A DNA stretch of 64,000 bases from Hyphomicrobium sp. (GTDB lineage Bacteria; Pseudomonadota; Alphaproteobacteria; Rhizobiales; Hyphomicrobiaceae): positions 5,728 to 69,727 of the forward strand of contig JANMNH010000116.1 of the NCBI GenBank assembly GCA_031373745.1, read 5' to 3'. The notes beneath the pieces were generated by a model. It did no database searches. It saw only the letters and a list, made by a program, of their open reading frames with translations, and was not told where the DNA came from. Each line of letters starts with the position of its first letter. The stretch's first letter is position 1. This document shows positions 5,079 to 24,178 of this stretch, piece by piece. Made by a program: the position numbers and the translations under genes.

Positions 5079-6380
5079 ATGAAAATCTGCATGATCGGCG
5101 CGGGATATGTGGGGCTCGTCTCTGCGGCCTGCTTTTCGGAATTCGGCTGGCACGTCGTCTGCGTCGATAAGGACAAAGAGCGCTTGGCCGAGCTCAATGC
5201 CGGGCGCTCGCCGATCTATGAGCCGGGTCTCGACGACCTCATGCAGCGCAATATGCGCGCCGGCCGCCTGATCTTCACGGGCGATTTAACGGATGCCGTT
5301 AAAGGGGCCGACGTCGTCTTCCTTGCGGTCGGAACGCCCATGCGGCGCGGCGACGGATATGCGGACTTGTCGTATGTCTACGCAGCTGTAGACGAAATCA
5401 CGCCGCATCTCGAGGGGTTCACGGTAGTAACGACGAAATCGACGGTGCCCGTCGGCACCAGCCGCGAAATCGAAGCGCGCATCCGCAATTTGCGGCCGGA
5501 TGCCAACATTGCGGTTTGTTCAAACCCGGAATTCCTGCGCGAGGGCTCGGCCATTCAGGACTTCACGCATCCTGACCGCGTGCTTGTCGGCACCGATAGC
5601 AAAGCAGCTCAAGAAGTCATGGACCAGCTTTACAAACCGCTTTCGCTGCGCGGCTCTCCGGTCATGTTCGTATCGCGCGAATCCGCCGAACTTGCGAAGT
5701 ACGCGGCCAACGCGTTTCTCGCGCTCAAGATCAGCTTCATCAACGAAGTGGCGGATCTTTGCGAGCAAGTCGGCGCCGACGTGCAGCAGGTGGCAAGCGC
5801 CATCGGCAAAGACAAACGTATTGGCGACAAGTTCTTGCATCCCGGTCCCGGCTATGGCGGCTCATGCTTTCCGAAGGACGTAGAGGCCTTGATCCGCACG
5901 GGGCGCGAAAATAAAGCGCCGCTTTCGCTCATCGAACAGGTCGAGCGCGTCAACCGCGAGCGCAAGATCGCCATGACGGGCCGCATTGAAGACGCGCTGG
6001 GCGGGGCCTTGCGCGGCAAGACGATTGGCATTCTTGGCGTGACGTTCAAGCCCAACACCGACGACATGCGGGACGCGCCGAGCCTTGTCATTTTACCGAT
6101 GCTGATGGATCGCGGCGCAATCGTCAAAGCGTTCGACCCGCAGGGCCGGAAGCACGCGGCACTCTTGCTGCCAGGCGTCAAATGGTGCGATAGCGCGCTT
6201 GAGACGGCTGATGGCGCCGATGTTTTGGTCGTTCTGACGGAATGGAACGAGTTCCGCGCCCTCGATCTCAAGGACGTGCGCAAGCGTATGAAGGGCACAA
6301 AGCTCGTGGACTTGCGCAACATATTCGTGCCGCGCACCGCCCTTGAAGCGGGATTGCATTACAAGGGCATTGGCCGCTGA
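5079..6380 (+). CDS. ugd: UDP-glucose 6-dehydrogenase
   Basis: 'MIGAGYVGL' Rossmann motif, 'NPEFLREG', 'GPGYGGSCFPKD', 'FKPNTDDMR'. Confidence 0.93.
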   Translation: MKICMIGAGYVGLVSAACFSEFGWHVVCVDKDKERLAELNAGRSPIYEPGLDDLMQRNMRAGRLIFTGDLTDAVKGADVVFLAVGTPMRRGDGYADLSYVYAAVDEITPHLEGFTVVTTKSTVPVGTSREIEARIRNLRPDANIAVCSNPEFLREGSAIQDFTHPDRVLVGTDSKAAQEVMDQLYKPLSLRGSPVMFVSRESAELAKYAANAFLALKISFINEVADLCEQVGADVQQVASAIGKDKRIGDKFLHPGPGYGGSCFPKDVEALIRTGRENKAPLSLIEQVERVNRERKIAMTGRIEDALGGALRGKTIGILGVTFKPNTDDMRDAPSLVILPMLMDRGAIVKAFDPQGRKHAALLLPGVKWCDSALETADGADVLVVLTEWNEFRALDLKDVRKRMKGTKLVDLRNIFVPRTALEAGLHYKGIGR

Positions 6381-6395
6381 GACCAGTGATGGCTC

Positions 6396-7751
6396 TCAGC
6401 GCTCCTTGAACGCCTTGGCGAACTGGTCCTCGATCGGTCTCGTCAGGTAAGAAAGCGCTGTGCGCGCGGTCGTCACGATTTGCACGTCCGCCGGCATGCC
6501 GGGCACGAGTTTCAAACCGTCGAGCTTCTGCATTTCAGAATCTGGAATTTCAATTCGGGCGACATAGTACGAAATGTTGTTGTGCTGATCGTGCGTCAGA
6601 TCGGCCGCGACATTGATTACCTTGCCGGAAACGGTCGGTGTCGTGCGCTGGTTGAATGCCGTTAGACGAATCGTTGCTTCCTCGTGAGATCGCGCCTGAT
6701 CGATATCTTGCGGCGCGATCCGTGCTTCGACGAGCAGGCGGTCGCCTTCGGGAACGATCAGCATTAAAGGATCGGCAGGATTGATGACGCCGCCGACCGT
6801 AAAGACGGTCAGTTGATGCACGAGGCCGTCTACCGGGCTTTTCAAATCGATGCGGCGCAACTGGTCTTCGGCCGCTATGCGCCGTTCGCCAAGTTCCGAA
6901 AATTTGCCTTCCGCTTCGCGCAATTCCTTGACGACGTCGCTCTTGGCTTCCTGGTCGATGCCGATGCGTTGCATTTCAATTTCGGCGATCTTGCCCCGGC
7001 TGGTTCCGGCTGCGGCCTGTAAGTGCGCCTTTTCGCCATCGAGGCGCGCGCCCTCGCGCCGCAAGTTATTGATCTTCGTCGTCGGCACAAGCTGCTTGGC
7101 TTCGAGCGTCTCGAGGCCCGTGAGTTCCTTGGCGATTAAGTCGATCTCGCGGGTCTTTGCGGCCGCTTGAGAGACGAGACCCGATATCTCTTCCTCAAGT
7201 CCGGAAATTCTTTCGCCCAATTGGTTTTTTTGAGATGCTCGCGTGCCGACGCGCGATTCAAAGTGCGTTTTTTCGCCAGCCAGAATTTGCCCGATGGCCG
7301 GGTCATCGGCGCGCTTCAGAAGTTCTTCCGGAAAGGTAACGACCGCTGTTTCGTCGCGCTCGGCGCGCAAGCGCGCAATGCGGCCCATGAGTTGGTCCAT
7401 TTGCCGGGTTATGACCTGGAGGCTTGCTCGCGTCATGGTCTCGTCGAGGCGCACAAGCACGTCGCCGACTTTCACATGGTCGCCGTTTTTGACGAAAATC
7501 TGCCCGACAACTCCGCCGGTTGGGTGCTGAATTTTCTTGACGTTGCTGGCGACAACGACGGTGCCGGGCGCAAGAACGGCGCCGGCAAGATCGGTCGTGG
7601 CCGCCCAGCCTCCCATGCCGCCGACCAGGAGAACAAGCGTCGCAAATCCGAGCGCCACATAATTCTTGACCGAAGTCAGTTTGTGGTCGAGGCGAACAGG
7701 AGCTTGGCGCAGTTTTGCGCTCTCTGAGGCGGCTACAATCTCTTTGCTCAT
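6396..7751 (-). CDS. Type I secretion membrane-fusion protein, HlyD/PrtE/PrsE family
   Basis: N-terminal TM, 'IQHPTGGVVGQIFVKNGDHVKVGDVLVRLD', long coiled coil, 'LVPGMPADVQI', 'SYLTRPI'. Confidence 0.92.
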   Translation of the reverse strand: MSKEIVAASESAKLRQAPVRLDHKLTSVKNYVALGFATLVLLVGGMGGWAATTDLAGAVLAPGTVVVASNVKKIQHPTGGVVGQIFVKNGDHVKVGDVLVRLDETMTRASLQVITRQMDQLMGRIARLRAERDETAVVTFPEELLKRADDPAIGQILAGEKTHFESRVGTRASQKNQLGERISGLEEEISGLVSQAAAKTREIDLIAKELTGLETLEAKQLVPTTKINNLRREGARLDGEKAHLQAAAGTSRGKIAEIEMQRIGIDQEAKSDVVKELREAEGKFSELGERRIAAEDQLRRIDLKSPVDGLVHQLTVFTVGGVINPADPLMLIVPEGDRLLVEARIAPQDIDQARSHEEATIRLTAFNQRTTPTVSGKVINVAADLTHDQHNNISYYVARIEIPDSEMQKLDGLKLVPGMPADVQIVTTARTALSYLTRPIEDQFAKAFKER

Positions 7752-9541
7752 GCCGAATCCTTCGCGTGCATTGGGAGATGCTGTTCGTGGCCTTCGATGC
7801 GCGCCGGTGCGCTTTCGTTTCCTTGCGGCACAGTCTGCAGGATATTGCGCAAAACTTCGTCCTTGGGACCGAAGGCGCGGGTCTGGCCGTTGGCCAGGAC
7901 GAGGACCTTGCTGACGGCCGCGAGAGCGGACGGGCGGTGCGCGATCACGATGGCTATGCCGCCGCGGCGGCGCACGGAAAGTATGGCTTCGGTCAATGCG
8001 GCGTCACCTGCAGCGTCAAGGCTGGCGTTTGGTTCGTCCAGCACGACGAGGAAAGGATTGCCATAAAGAGCGCGCGCAAGGGCAACACGCTGGCGTTCGC
8101 CGCCGGAGAGCGATCGGCCGCTTTCGCCTATGCGGGTTTGGTAGCCTTGTTGCAGGCGGACGATGAGGTCGTGAGATCCGGCAGCTTTTGCGGCGGCGAT
8201 GACGGCTTCGCTGGTCGCGTCTGGATCGAAGCGCGCGATATTCTCCGCGATTGTCCCATCGAAGAGTTCGACGTCTTGCGGCATGTAACCAATATGCTTG
8301 CCGAGTTTTTCGGGCGTCCATTGATCGAGCGCTGCGCCATCGAGACGAATGGAACTCGCCGGATTGAGCGGCAGCCAGACTCCAACGAGCGCGCGCGCAA
8401 GGGAAGATTTGCCCGAGCCGCTTGGCCCGATGACGCCGAGCGCGTCGCCCTTCTCTAGGCCGAAGCCGACGTTCTTGATAATGGCTTCGTGCTGGCCCGG
8501 CGGGCCGACGAAGAGAGCTTCAACCGCAAGCTGACGCTTGGGAGCGGGGAGATCGACGACCTCGCGGTCGAGCGTGCCGGCGGCGGTCAAGAGTTCGCCC
8601 AAACGTTTTGCGCTCATGCGGGCGGAGATAAAACTTTTCCAATGGGCGATGGCGGATTCGATGGGGGCCAGCGCGCGCGACACGGTAATCGATGCCGCAA
8701 TAATTGCGCCGGCCGACAGTTCCTGGTGGATGACGAGATAAGCGCCAAAGCCGAGAACGGCGGACTGGAGCACCATGCGGATGACTTTGGTCAAGTTGCC
8801 GATGCCGCCGGCGGCGTCGGAAGCCTTAAGCTGATAGGCGAGATACTCGCTATTCAACGCGTCGAATCGTTTGCCGATGTGACCGCCGAGGCCCATGGCG
8901 AAAATGGCTTCTGCATTGCGCCGCGCCGATTCGGCGAGTGCTATTCTCTGGCCGCCTGCTTGGGACGCAGCCTTCATTGGCTTGGAGCTGCGTACTTCCG
9001 TGAGGACAGTAAGTGCGATCAGGGTCAGTGCACCTAGGACGGCGATCAGCGCGAGGGACGGGTGCAACATGTAAACGAAGAAAAGGTAGATCGGCATCCA
9101 AGGGAGATCGAAGAGGGCCGTCAAGCCAAGTCCGCCCATGAAGGAGCGAATCTGGTCGAGGTCGCGAATGGGCTGCATGCCGTCGCCGCCGCCGCGTGTT
9201 CTGAGCGGCAGGATCTGAACCGCTGCAAAAACTTTAGGGCTCAAGTTCTTGTCGATGCGCACGCCGACGCGGCTCATGATGCGCGCGCGAATGAACTCGA
9301 GTATGCCGTTTATGGCGTAGAGCCCAACCATCAAAACAGAAAGGCCGATGAGTGTCGGCACGGACTGAGACGGGAGCACCCGGTCGTAGACCTGGAGCAT
9401 GTAGAACGATCCGGCCAGCGCCAAAAAGTTGATCACGCCCGAGAACAGCGCAACGCTTGTGAGGATCGGGCTGTACTTCAGGAGCAGCGATGCAACCGGG
9501 TGCTTTTGCGCGTGCGTTGCGGCTTGTCGATTAATTGCCAT
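7748..9541 (-). CDS. Type I secretion ABC permease/ATPase, PrtD/AprD/PrsD family (no C39-like domain)
   Basis: 'YMLQVYDRVLPSQSVPTL', 'LFDLPWMP', Walker A 'GPSGSGKSS', signature 'LSGGERQR', Walker B 'VVLDEPNA'. 597 aa with no N-terminal peptidase-like domain. Confidence 0.93.
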   Translation of the reverse strand: MAINRQAATHAQKHPVASLLLKYSPILTSVALFSGVINFLALAGSFYMLQVYDRVLPSQSVPTLIGLSVLMVGLYAINGILEFIRARIMSRVGVRIDKNLSPKVFAAVQILPLRTRGGGDGMQPIRDLDQIRSFMGGLGLTALFDLPWMPIYLFFVYMLHPSLALIAVLGALTLIALTVLTEVRSSKPMKAASQAGGQRIALAESARRNAEAIFAMGLGGHIGKRFDALNSEYLAYQLKASDAAGGIGNLTKVIRMVLQSAVLGFGAYLVIHQELSAGAIIAASITVSRALAPIESAIAHWKSFISARMSAKRLGELLTAAGTLDREVVDLPAPKRQLAVEALFVGPPGQHEAIIKNVGFGLEKGDALGVIGPSGSGKSSLARALVGVWLPLNPASSIRLDGAALDQWTPEKLGKHIGYMPQDVELFDGTIAENIARFDPDATSEAVIAAAKAAGSHDLIVRLQQGYQTRIGESGRSLSGGERQRVALARALYGNPFLVVLDEPNASLDAAGDAALTEAILSVRRRGGIAIVIAHRPSALAAVSKVLVLANGQTRAFGPKDEVLRNILQTVPQGNESAPARIEGHEQHLPMHAKDSA

Positions 9542-9674
9542 TTTGCCTTCGGCATTCCGTCTCTGTTGAGCCTGTCGTCGCGAGAAGTCGTGTTGTGTTT
9601 TTGAGCGCGTCTTAATCTACGTCACATGCTGATCGAACTTGCCGATGGAACTCATGAAGGCTACGCAGGATTTT

Positions 9675-10244
9675 CTAGGCTTCTTTGGGCTTGATGAAGC
9701 CGACGGCCATGCGGCCATCCGGCATCGCAGCTCGAATTTTTGCCGGCATCGCCTTGAACGTTCTTTCGGCGAGTTTCTTGAGAAGCTCGCCGACGATTTT
9801 AGGATCGCCGACCGTGTCGATAACCCAGGGCTGGCTGCCGCTCTTCCAATCCTTGCCTTCGACATGGAGGAATTCGCTGGTGCTCTCCGAAAGCCGCTTA
9901 TCGACTTCGGGCGAGACCAACGCCCACCAGACCACGGCCGCGACGGCCATTGGCCCGCCCTGCTGTTGCTGCGCGCCGACAATGGCAAACTGGCCAAGGG
10001 CGATTGCGGGCGTCACGTAGGTGTTGAGTTCTCTAAGACTTAGTTTGCTATGGCGATTGGAGGCCGACATGATGGCCATGATCCGGCCAAACGCCGCTGC
10101 GCGCTGTTCGCTCGCTTCGCCGGCTTTTCGGGCCACTTCCGGCGACATAGGGGGCCCGGCCGCCGGTGTACCCGATTGCGGTTTCGGTGTTTCCGCAGAT
10201 TCTGGCGCGGCACCCGGAAGGACTTGCGATTTTGTGCTGAACAT
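9675..10244 (-). CDS. Toxin-activating lysine acyltransferase (HlyC/TAAT family)
   Basis: S-x-x-H motif 'MSASNRH', 'PAIALGQF', 'WALVSPEVDKRL', 'DWKSG..PWVID' all match HlyC/CyaC family features; Pro/Ala-rich N-terminal extension. Confidence 0.8.
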   Translation of the reverse strand: MFSTKSQVLPGAAPESAETPKPQSGTPAAGPPMSPEVARKAGEASEQRAAAFGRIMAIMSASNRHSKLSLRELNTYVTPAIALGQFAIVGAQQQQGGPMAVAAVVWWALVSPEVDKRLSESTSEFLHVEGKDWKSGSQPWVIDTVGDPKIVGELLKKLAERTFKAMPAKIRAAMPDGRMAVGFIKPKEA

Positions 10245-10502
10245 GGCGCAACATTCCTCTGAAAATCTAACGAATTAACTAACATGCGTCCCGATTTATA
10301 GCAGCCGCCGGGAGCGGCGACTATCCGCAGGCCAACATTTCGCGCTCCTTCAAAGGCTTGTCTATGCACCATACCCTTTGACGCAGCCCGAGAAGTTATC
10401 TCGCGTCTACGACAGAAGTTAGAATAAGCTTGGGCGATGTCCGGGCAGGCCGGACGCGGGCAGATGCCCGAGTGTAGGCACACCGAAACGGAGAAAGCCG
10501 AC

Positions 10503-11558
10503 GTGGATCAAGGCGCTGGGGCCGTTACGCTGAACCAGTTCCTGGCCGACTGGGGGCTAGAGCTTGCCACCCGCAAGGCAATATCGTCGACCGTCGCCGC
10601 CTTGGCCGGTGCCGGCGCCATGATGGCGCACAGGGTATCGAAGGGCGCTATTCCTGGGCGGCTTGGCCGTGTGACAGCCCGGGCCGGCGAATTCGACGAG
10701 CAAAAAGAAATCGACGTCCTTGCCAACAATGAAATCATAGAAGCGCTTCGGGCCGCACCTGTTGCCGCACTGGCCTCCGAAGAACTTGAAGAGCCGGTCG
10801 TTCTCGACGCCCAAGCGCCGCTGCTGGTGGCGGTCGATCCGCTTGACGGATCGTCGAACGTCGAAGCCAATGTTTCATTCGGAATGATTTTCTCGATTCT
10901 GCCGAGCCACCCCACATCGACCGGCGCCGCCGCATTTCTGCGCCCCGGCTCGCACCAGCTTGCGGCGGGCATGATCATCTATGGACCGGCGACCGTGTTT
11001 GCGCTGACGGTCGGGTCGGGCACACACGTCTTCACGCTCGATCACGCCACGGGAACGTTCTTGCTAACGCAAAAGAATGTTGCGATCCCGCCGACCGCAA
11101 ACGAGTACGCGATCAATTCGTCGAACGCGCGCTATTGGGAAGAGCCGATCCGAATCTATGTGCATGATTGCGAAAATGGAGCGGGCGGTCCGAGGGGGCG
11201 TGACTACAACATGCGCTGGACAGGATCGCCGGTGGCAGACGTTTACCGGATTCTGTCGCGTGGCGGCATTTATCTTTATCCGGCCGATAGCCGCAAAGGT
11301 TTTCAGCAAGGGCGCATCCGCTTGATTTATGAAGCCGGCCCCATCGCCTGGCTGGTTGAACAGGCGGGCGGGCGGGCGACGACGGGGCGCGAGCGCATCT
11401 TGGATGTCGTGCCCATAACGCTGCATCAGAAATCGCCGCTGATTTGCGGTTCGCGCGAAGAAGTCGATCACGTCGTGCGGCTCTATAGCGGCGAAAACCT
11501 GAAGGGGCAAAGCTCGCCGCTGTTCGGGCGGCGGGGCTTGTTTCGCGCTTGGAGTTGA
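10503..11558 (+). CDS. fbp: Fructose-1,6-bisphosphatase class 1 (CbbF type)
   Basis: 'VDPLDGSSN', 'YGPAT', 'EYAINSSN', 'RGGIYLYP', 'RLIYEAGP'. Start placed at GTG 10503 after a GGAG SD (the ORF is open from 10437). Confidence 0.9.
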   Translation: MDQGAGAVTLNQFLADWGLELATRKAISSTVAALAGAGAMMAHRVSKGAIPGRLGRVTARAGEFDEQKEIDVLANNEIIEALRAAPVAALASEELEEPVVLDAQAPLLVAVDPLDGSSNVEANVSFGMIFSILPSHPTSTGAAAFLRPGSHQLAAGMIIYGPATVFALTVGSGTHVFTLDHATGTFLLTQKNVAIPPTANEYAINSSNARYWEEPIRIYVHDCENGAGGPRGRDYNMRWTGSPVADVYRILSRGGIYLYPADSRKGFQQGRIRLIYEAGPIAWLVEQAGGRATTGRERILDVVPITLHQKSPLICGSREEVDHVVRLYSGENLKGQSSPLFGRRGLFRAWS

Positions 11559-21595: not shown

Positions 21596-24178
21596 ATGGT
21601 TGATACGCCAAATCTTGGGTTGTCCTATATTCTGGCGGCCCAGTCACAAAAACACGTTCCCCACAACGAAGCGATACGGGCGCTCGATGCCGTTGTGCAG
21701 CTGTCGGTGCTCGACCGGAGCTTGACGGCGCCGCCTGCGACGCCGGCGGAAGGCAATCGCTATATCGTCGCCAGTTCGCCAACCGGCGCGTGGCTGGGGC
21801 AGGCTGAAAAAATTGCGGCCTACCAGGATGGCGCCTGGATCTTCTACATGCCGAGAGAGGGCTGGATCTCGTGGGTCGCAGATGAAGATATTGCCGTGGC
21901 ATTCGATGGCGCTGCATGGACGGCACTTTCGACCGGTGGCGGTGGGGGCGGCGTGACCGACCACGGGCTCTTGACGGGCCTTGGCGATGACGATCATGTG
22001 CAGTATCTCAACAACGCGCGCGGCGACGCGCGCTATACGCCGCTCAATCCCCCGACGCTCGGCATCAACGCGACCGCCGACACGACCAACCGTTTGGCGG
22101 TTGGGTCGGCTGCATCGCTGTTCTCGCATACCGGCACCGGCGGCCATCAGATCAAGGTCAACAAGGCCGCCGCGGCGGACACCGCGAGCTTCCTGTTTCA
22201 AGATAACTTCTCCGGGCGTGCCGAAATCGGGCTCACCGGAGACGACGATTTCCATTTCAAGGTCAGCGCCAACGGCACCACGTTCAACGAAGCCATCATC
22301 ATCAACCGCGCGACCGGCGCGTGCGCATTTCCGAACACGTCATTTGGCGTCGCCGACGGCGACAAAGGCGATGTCACGGTCACAGGCTCTGGCGCAACGT
22401 GGACGGTTGACGCCGATGCGGTGACGAATGCGAAACTCGCCGACGTGCCGACCGCGACGCTCAAAGGCCGCGTGACGGCGGCAACCGGGGACCCGGAAGA
22501 CCTGACGGTGGCGCAAGCGAAGGCGCTGCTCAATTTGACCGGCACGAACTCGGGCGATCAAACCTCGATTGTTGGCATTACCGGCACCATTGCTCAGTTC
22601 AACACAGCTTGCACGGACGCGGATTTCGCGACCGGCGGCGGCACGATAACCGGAACAAGCACCGGCACCAATACCGGCGATCAGACCATCACGCCGACCG
22701 GCGCAGTGACGGGGTCCGGTACGGGCTCGTTCGCAACAACGATTGCCGCGAATGCCGTCGATAATACCAAGCTCGCCGACGTTCCGACAGCGACGCTCAA
22801 AGGCCGCGTGACGGCGGCAACCGGGGACCCGGAAGACCTGACGGTGGCGCAAGCGAAGACGCTGCTCAATTTGACCGGCACGAACTCGGGCGATCAGACG
22901 TCCATCGTTGGTATTACCGGTACGCTCGCGCAATTCAACACGGCTTGCACCGACGCGGATTTCGCGACCGGCGGCGGAACGAGCACCGGCACGAACACTG
23001 GGGATAACGCGGTCAACACGCTCTACAGCGGACTTGTCACCAACGCGACGCACACGGGCGACGTAACCGGCGCCACTGCTCTTACGATTGCGAGCAACGC
23101 GGTGACGACGGCCAAGCTGGCCGACAACAACGTCACTCTGGCGAAGATCGAAGACGCCGCCGCTTTTACGCTTCTGCTGCGTAATTCTGCGACAACCGGC
23201 GACCCGGCCTACGTCAAAATCAGCGCCTTGACCGACCGCCTCGCGTTCGGCGCGGGCGACAAGATCATGATCGAGGAATCGACGGGAGAGCTGCGCAAGA
23301 TCGATTTTAGCGATCTTCCTGGCGCGAGCGGCGGCATCTCAAACGGCTATGCGACAATTACGGACGGGACCACGCCGGCCAGCGCCGTGGGTGCCGATAC
23401 CTTTAAGCTCCGGGCGGGTGCCGGTATCGCCGTTGCGACGCAAAACAACGACGCGACGCATGGCGATAACGCGTTAATTAGTTTGGACCCGCGCCGCAAT
23501 CCGTTCTTCTCTTGCGACTTCTGGAGCATTCAGCTGGCTCAGGGCGACTTCCAAATAGCTGCAATTTCGACAGGCGCGATCACAACGGCACCGGCGGCCG
23601 GTGTGATCGATGGTAGTCATCCGGGCGTGATCCTTGTCCGCTCGTCAACGACGGCCAACAGCGGCGTACAAGTGATGAGCGGGCAGACCGGCGCCGTGGC
23701 GGGCGCACTCCTCCGCATTGGCGGGGGCGAGCAATTCGATTGTGTCTTCCGCACGCCCGCGGCCTTAACAAACCTGACGTACCGGATGGGCTGGCTCGAT
23801 ACGGTGACGAGCGCCGACGCGGTGGACGGCATCTATTTCGAAATGCCTGCCTCCGGCGCTATTGTTGGCAAGACCTCAAGCAATTCGACGCGCACGACAT
23901 CGGGGACCATCGCCACCCTGGTCGCGAGCACCTGGTATCACGCCCGTGCCGTCGTGAACGCAGCTGCGACGGGCGTGGATTTCTTCATCTTTAGCGACGC
24001 CGGAACGCAGCTCGGCACGGTAAATATCGCGACCAACATCCCGACCGCTTCGGGCCGCGAGCTTGGTTGCGGCGGCGTGTTCACGAACAGCGGCACGTCG
24101 GCTGTCGATATTGTTAATCTCGATTACATGGCGTTTGGAACGCCGGGGCGGGTCTTGGTGAGAGGGGCGTTGAGTTAG
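21596..24178 (+). CDS. DUF2793-domain tail-fibre/adhesin-like protein with internal repeats
   Basis: N-terminus 'TPNLGLSYILAAQSQKHVPHNEAIRALDAVVQLSV...PAEGNRYIV...GAWIFYMPREGW' is DUF2793-like. Gly/Thr/Ala-rich repeated shaft follows, then a beta-rich C-terminal domain. Confidence 0.75.
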   Translation: MVDTPNLGLSYILAAQSQKHVPHNEAIRALDAVVQLSVLDRSLTAPPATPAEGNRYIVASSPTGAWLGQAEKIAAYQDGAWIFYMPREGWISWVADEDIAVAFDGAAWTALSTGGGGGGVTDHGLLTGLGDDDHVQYLNNARGDARYTPLNPPTLGINATADTTNRLAVGSAASLFSHTGTGGHQIKVNKAAAADTASFLFQDNFSGRAEIGLTGDDDFHFKVSANGTTFNEAIIINRATGACAFPNTSFGVADGDKGDVTVTGSGATWTVDADAVTNAKLADVPTATLKGRVTAATGDPEDLTVAQAKALLNLTGTNSGDQTSIVGITGTIAQFNTACTDADFATGGGTITGTSTGTNTGDQTITPTGAVTGSGTGSFATTIAANAVDNTKLADVPTATLKGRVTAATGDPEDLTVAQAKTLLNLTGTNSGDQTSIVGITGTLAQFNTACTDADFATGGGTSTGTNTGDNAVNTLYSGLVTNATHTGDVTGATALTIASNAVTTAKLADNNVTLAKIEDAAAFTLLLRNSATTGDPAYVKISALTDRLAFGAGDKIMIEESTGELRKIDFSDLPGASGGISNGYATITDGTTPASAVGADTFKLRAGAGIAVATQNNDATHGDNALISLDPRRNPFFSCDFWSIQLAQGDFQIAAISTGAITTAPAAGVIDGSHPGVILVRSSTTANSGVQVMSGQTGAVAGALLRIGGGEQFDCVFRTPAALTNLTYRMGWLDTVTSADAVDGIYFEMPASGAIVGKTSSNSTRTTSGTIATLVASTWYHARAVVNAAATGVDFFIFSDAGTQLGTVNIATNIPTASGRELGCGGVFTNSGTSAVDIVNLDYMAFGTPGRVLVRGALS
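22433..22981 (+). repeat. In-frame direct repeat: two ~213-nt copies (22433-22645, 22769-22981), 336-nt period
   Basis: Both copies encode KLADVPTATLKGRVTAATGDPEDLTVAQAKxLLNLTGTNSGDQTSIVGITGTxAQFNTACTDADFATGGGT. Confidence 0.95.

Follow-up and report, generated by a model that had tools for sequence, protein, structure and literature searches.

A conserved three-gene module pairing an HlyC-like acyltransferase homologue with a PrtD-type secretion system in Hyphomicrobium

Introduction

Enzymes of the HlyC family, the toxin-activating acyltransferases (TAATs), are usually encoded beside a repeats-in-toxin (RTX) toxin and a HlyB exporter containing a C39 domain. To our knowledge, they are known almost only as activators of the pore-forming RTX toxins of pathogens, with CdiC as one exception. 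What such an enzyme would act upon is therefore a question raised by a locus of a soil/water Hyphomicrobium sp. in which an HlyC-like gene precedes the genes of a PrtD/PrtE-type type I secretion system (T1SS), with no toxin gene beside them. The locus lies in a 64,000-nucleotide stretch of DNA, hereafter the window, corresponding to positions 5728–69727 of the 83.7-kb contig JANMNH010000116.1 (C53) of assembly GCA_031373745.1; positions given below without a contig or locus name are those of the window. Coupling of a TAAT to a T1SS is the logic of the classical hlyCABD operons (PMC3034196), and TAATs can lipidate cargo other than RTX cytolysins, as demonstrated by CdiC (PMC8510554; PMC9086364) and, less clearly, by RtxC of the multifunctional autoprocessing RTX (MARTX) toxins (PMC3034196). 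The data presented here are best explained if the three genes act together in one module for secretion and modification, which would behave like a housekeeping unit that lipidates and exports the products of orphan cargo genes. With some reserve, we lean towards a role in which the acyltransferase lipidates one or more RTX exoproteins that are encoded in trans and exported by the co-encoded general PrtD/PrtE system.

Results

An HlyC-like gene precedes a PrtD-type exporter

The interval 6396–10244 is wholly occupied by three co-oriented minus-strand open reading frames (ORFs), which are arranged with their flanks as follows:

5079–6380, plus strand: ugd, UDP-glucose dehydrogenase, module flank
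6396–7751, minus strand: prtE, HlyD/AprE-type T1SS periplasmic adaptor (membrane fusion protein, MFP), 451 aa, TIGR01843
7748–9541, minus strand: prtD, PrtD-type T1SS ABC permease/ATPase, 597 aa, TIGR01842
9542–9674, minus strand: hlyC–prtD spacer, 133 bp
9675–10244, minus strand: HlyC/TAAT-family lysine acyltransferase homologue, 189 aa, Pfam HlyC PF02794
10245–10436, strand not applicable: divergent intergenic region between the hlyC-like gene and fbp, 192 bp
10437–11558, plus strand: fbp, fructose-1,6-bisphosphatase, module flank

The ABC protein matched the type_I_sec_PrtD model TIGR01842 over its full length with 701 bits (cut-off 510) and the HlyB model TIGR01846 with only 293 bits (cut-off 725). 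Its Pfam domains were ABC_membrane and ABC_tran alone, and no Peptidase_C39 or C39-like N-terminal domain was detected by Pfam, although the same analysis did reveal Peptidase_C39 in the ABC protein of a Filomicrobium locus (L063) serving as control. The adaptor scored 383 bits against the type_I_hlyD model TIGR01843 (cut-off 209) and matched HlyD_3, HlyD_D23 and Biotin_lipoyl_2 in Pfam, with its orthologues matching HH_AprE and Beta-barrel_AprE. Both ABC and MFP components therefore score above the profile cut-offs for a PrtD/AprD-type T1SS.

The prtD stop and prtE start codons overlap as ATGA, indicating translational coupling, and a GAGGA ribosome-binding site is located 9 nt 5' of the ATG of the hlyC-like gene. 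A terminator scan of the hlyC–prtD spacer recognised no minus-strand terminator-like hairpin, and the hlyC-like gene, prtD and prtE may be co-transcribed. The module promoter is presumably located in the divergent region at 10245–10436, in which a sigma-70 scan recognised no promoter. A small substrate ORF or RNA element encoded in the spacer was considered and rejected: a 12-codon ORF (MSSIGKFDQHVT) is present, but alignment with the spacers of 10 relatives revealed no conserved small ORF, and conservation was limited to approximately 40 nt 5' of the prtD start.

The initial annotation of this stretch had described an HlyC-like gene with S-x-x-H and D motifs (Ser62 to His65 and Asp143, see below), co-oriented with and 134 bp upstream of T1SS ABC and MFP genes and flanked by ugd and fbp. 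The gene identities, order, strand and flanks all stand and only the gap needed correction, to 133 bp. Its report of neither an RTX-repeat ORF nor TolC in 64 kb extends to the entire contig, since no RTX repeat (PF00353) was found on C53 in a whole-genome scan and no TolC-type gene is carried by it. The neighbours of the hlyC-like gene are prtD and fbp, with no TpsB-, CdiA- or cdiB-type ORF and no obvious alternative acylation target nearby.

Predicted fold and catalytic residues of the HlyC-like protein

The HlyC-like protein matched Pfam HlyC with 56.8 bits (cut-off 25; E 2.8e-15) across profile positions 1–107 of 127, while NCBIfam yielded no model for it. An AlphaFold2 model based on a 35-sequence alignment had a mean predicted local distance difference test (pLDDT) score of 89.6 and a predicted template-modelling (pTM) score of 0.77, and was uncertain only at residues 1–34, which form a predicted disordered Pro/Ala-rich N-terminal extension. 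When this model was searched with Foldseek the three top matches were chains of ApxC (4WHN; E 2.6e-9 to 1.1e-8, TM 0.59–0.67), followed by generic Gcn5-related N-acetyltransferases (GNATs) at E>0.03. The TAAT (GNAT-like) core spans approximately residues 35–185 and holds Ser62, His65 and Asp143, the latter two of which line up with the ApxC catalytic dyad in a phmmer alignment. The corresponding dyads are His24/Asp93 in ApxC and His37/Asp107 in CdiC. The His/Asp dyad mediates TAAT catalysis, with the Asp deprotonating the substrate lysine and the His protonating the acyl carrier protein (ACP) thiolate (PMC8510554), and for HlyC the residues named in a review on RTX proteins are Ser20 and His23 (PMC3034196).

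Among 24 clade relatives (46–90% identity) Ser62, Arg64 and His65 were invariant and position 143 was Asp or Glu throughout, which shows at the sequence level that the catalytic residues are under purifying selection in this clade. Strict conservation of Ser62, His65 and Asp/Glu143 argues for retained catalysis, and on the combined strength of alignment and structural model the window enzyme is very probably an active TAAT.

Conservation of the module among relatives

A scan using one genome per species identified 41 loci encoding relatives of the enzyme. In all eight of the closest (50–90% enzyme identity) hlyC–prtD–prtE is located between rpe–prk–fbp and ugd, and three metagenomic contigs encoding 56–61% identical enzymes repeat this arrangement, down to the Anbu operon on the far side of ugd. 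At L038 and L042, which are more distant (36–37% identity), the window neighbourhood of fbp/prk and prtD–prtE–ugd is shared. The order hlyC–prtD–prtE, the strand and a gap of 88–145 bp were constant in 11/11 clade loci examined, always between fbp–prk–rpe and ugd. Retention of the three-gene order with a short gap across 36–90% enzyme identity suggests selection for co-expression. To judge from this synteny, the module is an old, vertically inherited, cargo-less three-gene unit and not a remnant peculiar to the window genome.

RTX proteins and TolC are encoded in trans

A search of the genome for RTX-repeat proteins had been proposed in the initial annotation. The assembly, a 150-contig draft of 3.58 Mb that is 98.2% complete, contained 118 PF00353 matches, all of them off C53. 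A scan of ORFs identified 19 proteins with at least three repeat motifs, mostly with T1SS-like C-termini, and several of the RTX proteins end in D-F-L-L-type C-termini. One of the 19, a 2852-aa protein encoded on C108, had three motif matches only and no PF00353 match and is probably not an RTX protein, giving a total of approximately 18. When the large RTX proteins were scanned for domains, those of C105 and C135 were found to be haem-peroxidase–RTX fusions and those of C48 and C37 cadherin/Big_9–RTX proteins. The C105 (C105:50167–57078, minus strand, 2303 aa) and C135 (C135:1604–8056, plus strand, 2150 aa) proteins each combine an animal-type haem peroxidase with RTX repeats and a T1SS-like C-terminus, and are 35–40% identical to an RTX protein encoded beside an HlyC-like gene at locus L049. 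Counts of lysines and of Gly-Lys in the RTX proteins did not discriminate among candidates.

An HlyA-like toxin elsewhere in the genome had been named beforehand as the finding that would count against a non-toxin substrate. The N-terminal pore-forming domain of RTX cytolysins (PF02382) was absent from the draft genome even at E≤0.1, and was found in 0/151 Hyphomicrobiaceae genomes in a search whose control genomes gave no positive either.

Two TolC-type genes scoring above the TIGR01844 cut-off are present at C60:22197–23429 and C60:23937–25169, unlinked to the module. Besides that of C53, two further ABC genes, on contigs C39 and C125, exceeded the PrtD cut-off, and a fourth T1SS on contig C91 adjoins two RTX genes. 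The T1SS loci of contigs C39 and C91 have their own adjoining cargo, whereas the window pump has none. Directly upstream of the second PrtD/PrtE pair, which is 53% and 47% identical to the window pair, contig C39 (9886–13170, plus strand) encodes a highly acidic protein of 1094 aa, rich in Gly, Ser and Asp, that matches nothing in Pfam and ends in D-F-E-T-L; this protein is probably the cargo of that pump.

The genome also encodes a second HlyC-family paralogue of 218 aa (C67:792–1448, plus strand; 55 bits on Pfam HlyC), in which Tyr and Thr replace the His/Asp dyad and whose gene has a DUF502 gene on one side and, on the other, a divergent gene of the HlyD family. This paralogue is sister to the L049 enzyme in the tree described below (97/85), and the RTX neighbour at L049 is 40% identical over 1342 residues to the C105 protein, so that the peroxidase–RTX proteins are likelier partners of the C67 paralogue than of the window gene.

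A divergent HlyC-like subfamily and its neighbours

HlyC-like genes were present in 82/151 sampled Hyphomicrobiaceae genomes (54%), representing 38/51 genera. In a maximum-likelihood tree the branch of the window clade was long and had full support (100/99), within a Hyphomicrobiaceae radiation that was itself poorly resolved, and a canonical-looking pair, L063 (Filomicrobium) and L066, fell outside it. A survey of the neighbourhoods of homologues, also suggested at the outset, revealed that distant members adjoin non-toxin RTX genes. At L059, from an uncultured alphaproteobacterium among the nearest outgroups, a gene for a 3194-aa beta-helix RTX protein is followed by hlyC, prtD and prtE; the ABC protein of this locus is C39-less and its HlyC-like protein lacks the dyad (Phe/Leu). 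The L049 gene adjoins one for a haem-peroxidase–RTX protein, that of L052 one for a 1032-aa cadherin-like RTX protein, and that of L055 both a T1SS and genes for DUF4214–RTX proteins. Giant RTX proteins are encoded beside the homologues of L054 and L057, and prtD–prtE lies beside those of L044 and L046–L048. Many homologues are orphans (for example L034–L037, L040 and L041), with neither T1SS nor RTX genes in the surrounding 10 kb on either side. Where neighbours of distant homologues are informative they are a non-toxin RTX protein or a C39-less T1SS. The HlyC-like gene of L052 (9905–10502) is split over two frames, reflecting either a frameshift or a pseudogene.

The view that HlyC normally accompanies a C39-type exporter, which formed part of the background to the initial annotation, is supported by L063 (4774–10381), where a canonical-type HlyC (127 bits on Pfam HlyC; S-P-L-H, A-P-F-G) is encoded with a C39-domain ABC protein, an MFP and a 2159-aa RTX protein. 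Set against this pairing with a Peptidase_C39 ABC protein, the partnership of the divergent HlyC-like subfamily is of another kind and is consistent.

A search of 1.84 billion cluster representatives recovered 1017 clusters at E≤1e-3, and 148 representatives were examined for residues. In the divergent subfamily the N-terminus carries the motif M-[FA]-[FW]-x-[SK]-K-K ahead of a disordered Pro/Ala-rich linker of 30–100 aa, the motif being recognised by regular expression in 63/148 representatives and occurring in homologues among L034–L059. Motif and linker are not found in the classical TAATs ApxC and HlyC, and they might tether the protein to the membrane or pump. In the window enzyme the motif is degenerate (MFSTKSQ; residues 1–35, encoded by 10139–10244).

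Other features of the neighbourhood

T1SS cargo hidden among the large ORFs of the window was sought and none was plausible, the products being an HrpB helicase, a DUF2793 fibre-like protein, a sarcosine oxidase alpha subunit, an epimerase, and sulfatase-like and thioredoxin-like proteins. The fibre-like protein (21596–24178, plus strand; 860 aa) combines DUF2793 with an SO2946-like C-terminal region and resembles fibres of phages or gene transfer agents; a DUF2793 gene also occurs a few kb past rpe on a related contig (L071), making it part of the conserved neighbourhood. A defence system was likewise rejected, as a PADLOC scan of the three module proteins gave generic ATPase similarity only.

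Discussion

Proposed function of the module

By analogy with HlyC, ApxC and CdiC, the HlyC-like enzyme would take a fatty acyl group from acyl-ACP in the cytoplasm and join it in amide linkage to a specific lysine, at the epsilon-amino group, of a secretion substrate that is still unfolded. Export of this substrate through its C-terminal signal would then fall to the PrtD-type ABC protein and adaptor, together with an unlinked TolC encoded on C60, and the lipid may serve in surface or membrane association. The substrate is most likely one or more of the approximately 18 RTX-repeat exoproteins, none of which is an HlyA-type cytolysin. Candidate cargo comprises orphan RTX proteins with acidic-then-hydrophobic C-termini, among them those of C71 and C100 and a pair encoded on C124, as well as the large proteins of adhesin-like or peroxidase type. 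The proposal builds on the gene identities, fold, conserved residues and synteny, on the absence of a cytolysin and on the RTX proteins and TolC encoded in trans.

A number of observations weigh against this proposal. ApxC (4WHN) was the sole match when PDB sequences were searched with phmmer and the match was weak (E 0.05, 16.6 bits), identity to ApxC being only approximately 19%. With three PrtD-type pumps in the genome, adjacency is no proof that the window pump exports the acylated protein. BLAST comparison of the neighbours of distant homologues with all ORFs of the genome found nothing specific to the window clade and named no substrate, the peroxidase–RTX protein of L049 matching those of C105 and C135 and the neighbour at L052 matching that of C37. 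The syntenic orthologues at L038 (10001–10540; Phe/Ala) and L042 (2972–3421; Asp/Met) have lost the dyad although their prtD and prtE genes look intact, and His with Asp/Glu was present in only 55/148 cluster representatives (37%). Acyl transfer may thus be dispensable for whatever function the family conserves. The suggestion that the enzyme acylates a non-toxin export encoded in trans, with which the initial annotation had concluded, is accordingly upheld in part: an intact dyad, a TAAT fold, non-toxin RTX proteins in the genome and beside distant homologues, and the lack of a cytolysin favour it, and the dyad-less syntenic orthologues and relatives do not. The example given there, a surface adhesin or S-layer protein anchored by its acyl chain, would be one putative form of such cargo.

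Alternative explanations

The enzyme might be active on some other target, such as a non-RTX protein, a small peptide or the cargo of another exporter, its adjacency to prtD and prtE being a legacy of an ancestor with an A-C-B-D-type locus from which the cargo gene has since been lost. The cargo–hlyC–prtD–prtE arrangement of L059 among the nearest outgroups speaks for this explanation, as do the presence of three PrtD-type pumps plus the RTX-linked T1SS of C91, the many orphan homologues and the service of CdiC to non-T1SS cargo (PMC8510554). Conservation of the three-gene order and short gap over 36–90% enzyme identity is less readily accommodated, and there is no cdiA/cdiB-type or other obvious target nearby and no conserved small ORF in or beside the module. 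This explanation is considered unlikely.

Rather unlikely too is that the HlyC-like protein is mainly a non-catalytic T1SS accessory, holding unfolded cargo for the C39-less PrtD-type ABC protein, with acyl transfer optional or vestigial. In the majority of the 41 loci the His is replaced by Tyr or Phe and the residue aligned with the Asp varies, yet all dyad-less members tested remain above the Pfam HlyC threshold, and such members persist beside T1SS genes or RTX cargo (L038, L042, L049, L055 and L059). The low frequency of a His plus acidic residue among the 148 representatives, the pairing of the divergent subfamily with C39-less ABC proteins and of the canonical-type L063 HlyC with a C39-domain ABC protein, and an N-terminal motif and disordered linker that might tether the protein to pump or membrane would all be in keeping with an accessory role. 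Dyad-less members either use other residues or have a fold with a non-catalytic role with cargo. Tyr with a retained Asp/Glu was seen in 27/148 representatives, the rest having other combinations, approximately 24 of them Tyr/Phe with a non-acidic residue. The combination of Tyr with a retained Asp/Glu could still allow direct attack, since His-to-Ala TAAT variants keep partial activity (PMC8510554), and Tyr could serve as general acid. Strict conservation of Ser62, His65 and Asp/Glu143 in the window clade speaks against a mainly accessory role, and our literature search found no experimental precedent for a chaperone-type TAAT. In a related and similarly doubtful model, the divergent subfamily would be a stand-alone counterpart of the C39-like domain of HlyB, capturing unfolded non-toxin RTX cargo at C39-less pumps, with lipidation kept in some lineages including that of the window and lost in others.

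It is highly improbable that the substrate is a classical RTX cytolysin activated by acylation and encoded elsewhere in the genome, so that the module would be no more than a split system of the hlyCABD type: a gene could be missing from a 150-contig draft of 98.2% completeness in which several RTX genes run off contig ends (for example C124:1–1491 and C98:7346–8692), but PF02382 is absent from the genome and from the family genomes (the latter without a positive control), the domain-scanned RTX proteins are of peroxidase or cadherin/Ig types, and the exporter is PrtD-type with no C39-like domain.

Comparison with known systems

Of these explanations, lipidation of RTX exoproteins encoded in trans is preferred, and the module thereby invites comparison with several characterised systems. 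Pfam family, fold and the positions of Ser-x-x-His and Asp are common to the window enzyme and to HlyC, ApxC, CyaC and RtxC of hlyCABD operons, and as in those operons the gene directly precedes ABC and MFP genes on the same strand, while TolC is encoded elsewhere, as it is in E. coli (PMC3034196). Unlike them, the window module has no adjoining protoxin gene and its genome no pore-forming RTX domain, the ABC protein is PrtD-type without a C39-like domain, the enzyme bears a disordered N-terminal Pro/Ala-rich extension of approximately 35 aa, and a free-living Hyphomicrobium carries the module.

CdiC of the class IV cdiBCAI locus of E. coli STEC_O31 is similarly a TAAT with a His/Asp dyad, and the secreted protein whose lysine it lipidates is no RTX cytolysin (PMC8510554). 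CdiC, however, serves an adjacent type V (two-partner) CdiA, whereas the window module is linked to a T1SS with its cargo unlinked, and the window gene is not located between cdiB and cdiA.

In its full-length TIGR01842 match, lack of a C39 or C39-like domain and AprE-type adaptor, the window exporter resembles PrtDEF/AprDEF (Dickeya proteases) and Rhizobium PrsDE, and like them would handle RTX cargo with acidic-then-hydrophobic C-termini. Some systems of this type export several unlinked substrates. The window module is set apart by a TAAT as its fixed first gene, since the cited reviews describe no acyltransferase in these systems (PMC3034196; PMC8277102). Vibrio MARTX RtxC is also an HlyC homologue and accompanies a giant RTX protein with multiple functions, distinct from the classical pore-formers, to whose action it contributes in part without being essential (PMC3034196); rtxC, however, shares an operon with rtxA and the exporter is RtxBDE, while the window module has no giant adjoining cargo gene. 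There is also a likeness to L059 and other Hyphomicrobiaceae loci, where members of the same divergent HlyC-like subfamily precede a C39-less ABC protein and MFP, although L059 has an adjoining cargo gene and no dyad, and the window an intact dyad and no cargo gene.

Full-text literature searches covering orphan TAATs, TAATs with PrtD, and T1SS or RTX proteins of Hyphomicrobium found no description of this arrangement. While the mechanism of the module is predictable from known parts, its novelty lies in the C39-less PrtD-type partner, in the lack of a cargo gene as far as traceable, in the lack of an acylation-dependent cytolysin in the genome or sampled family, and in the large uncharacterised divergent HlyC-like subfamily to which the enzyme belongs.

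Implications

A TAAT predicted to be catalytically intact is fixed in a protease-type T1SS module of a free-living methylotroph lineage. Pore-forming RTX toxins were found neither in the genome nor in the family as sampled, both of which are rich in RTX proteins of peroxidase, adhesin-like and beta-helix types. Loss of the dyad with retention of T1SS/RTX linkage raises the testable question of a second, non-enzymatic role for the TAAT fold in secretion, and if such proteins do capture cargo at C39-less pumps, free-living Alphaproteobacteria would commonly mature their non-toxin type I cargo by protein lipidation or TAAT-mediated capture. Should the window enzyme act as proposed, the module would provide a tractable model, outside pathogens, of how TAATs recognise their substrates, a process poorly understood so far (PMC8510554). 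If it lipidates an RTX peroxidase, adhesin-like or beta-helix protein, maturation of environmental type I cargo would generally include fatty acylation of lysine, and acylation might hold exoenzymes or adhesins on the cell surface.

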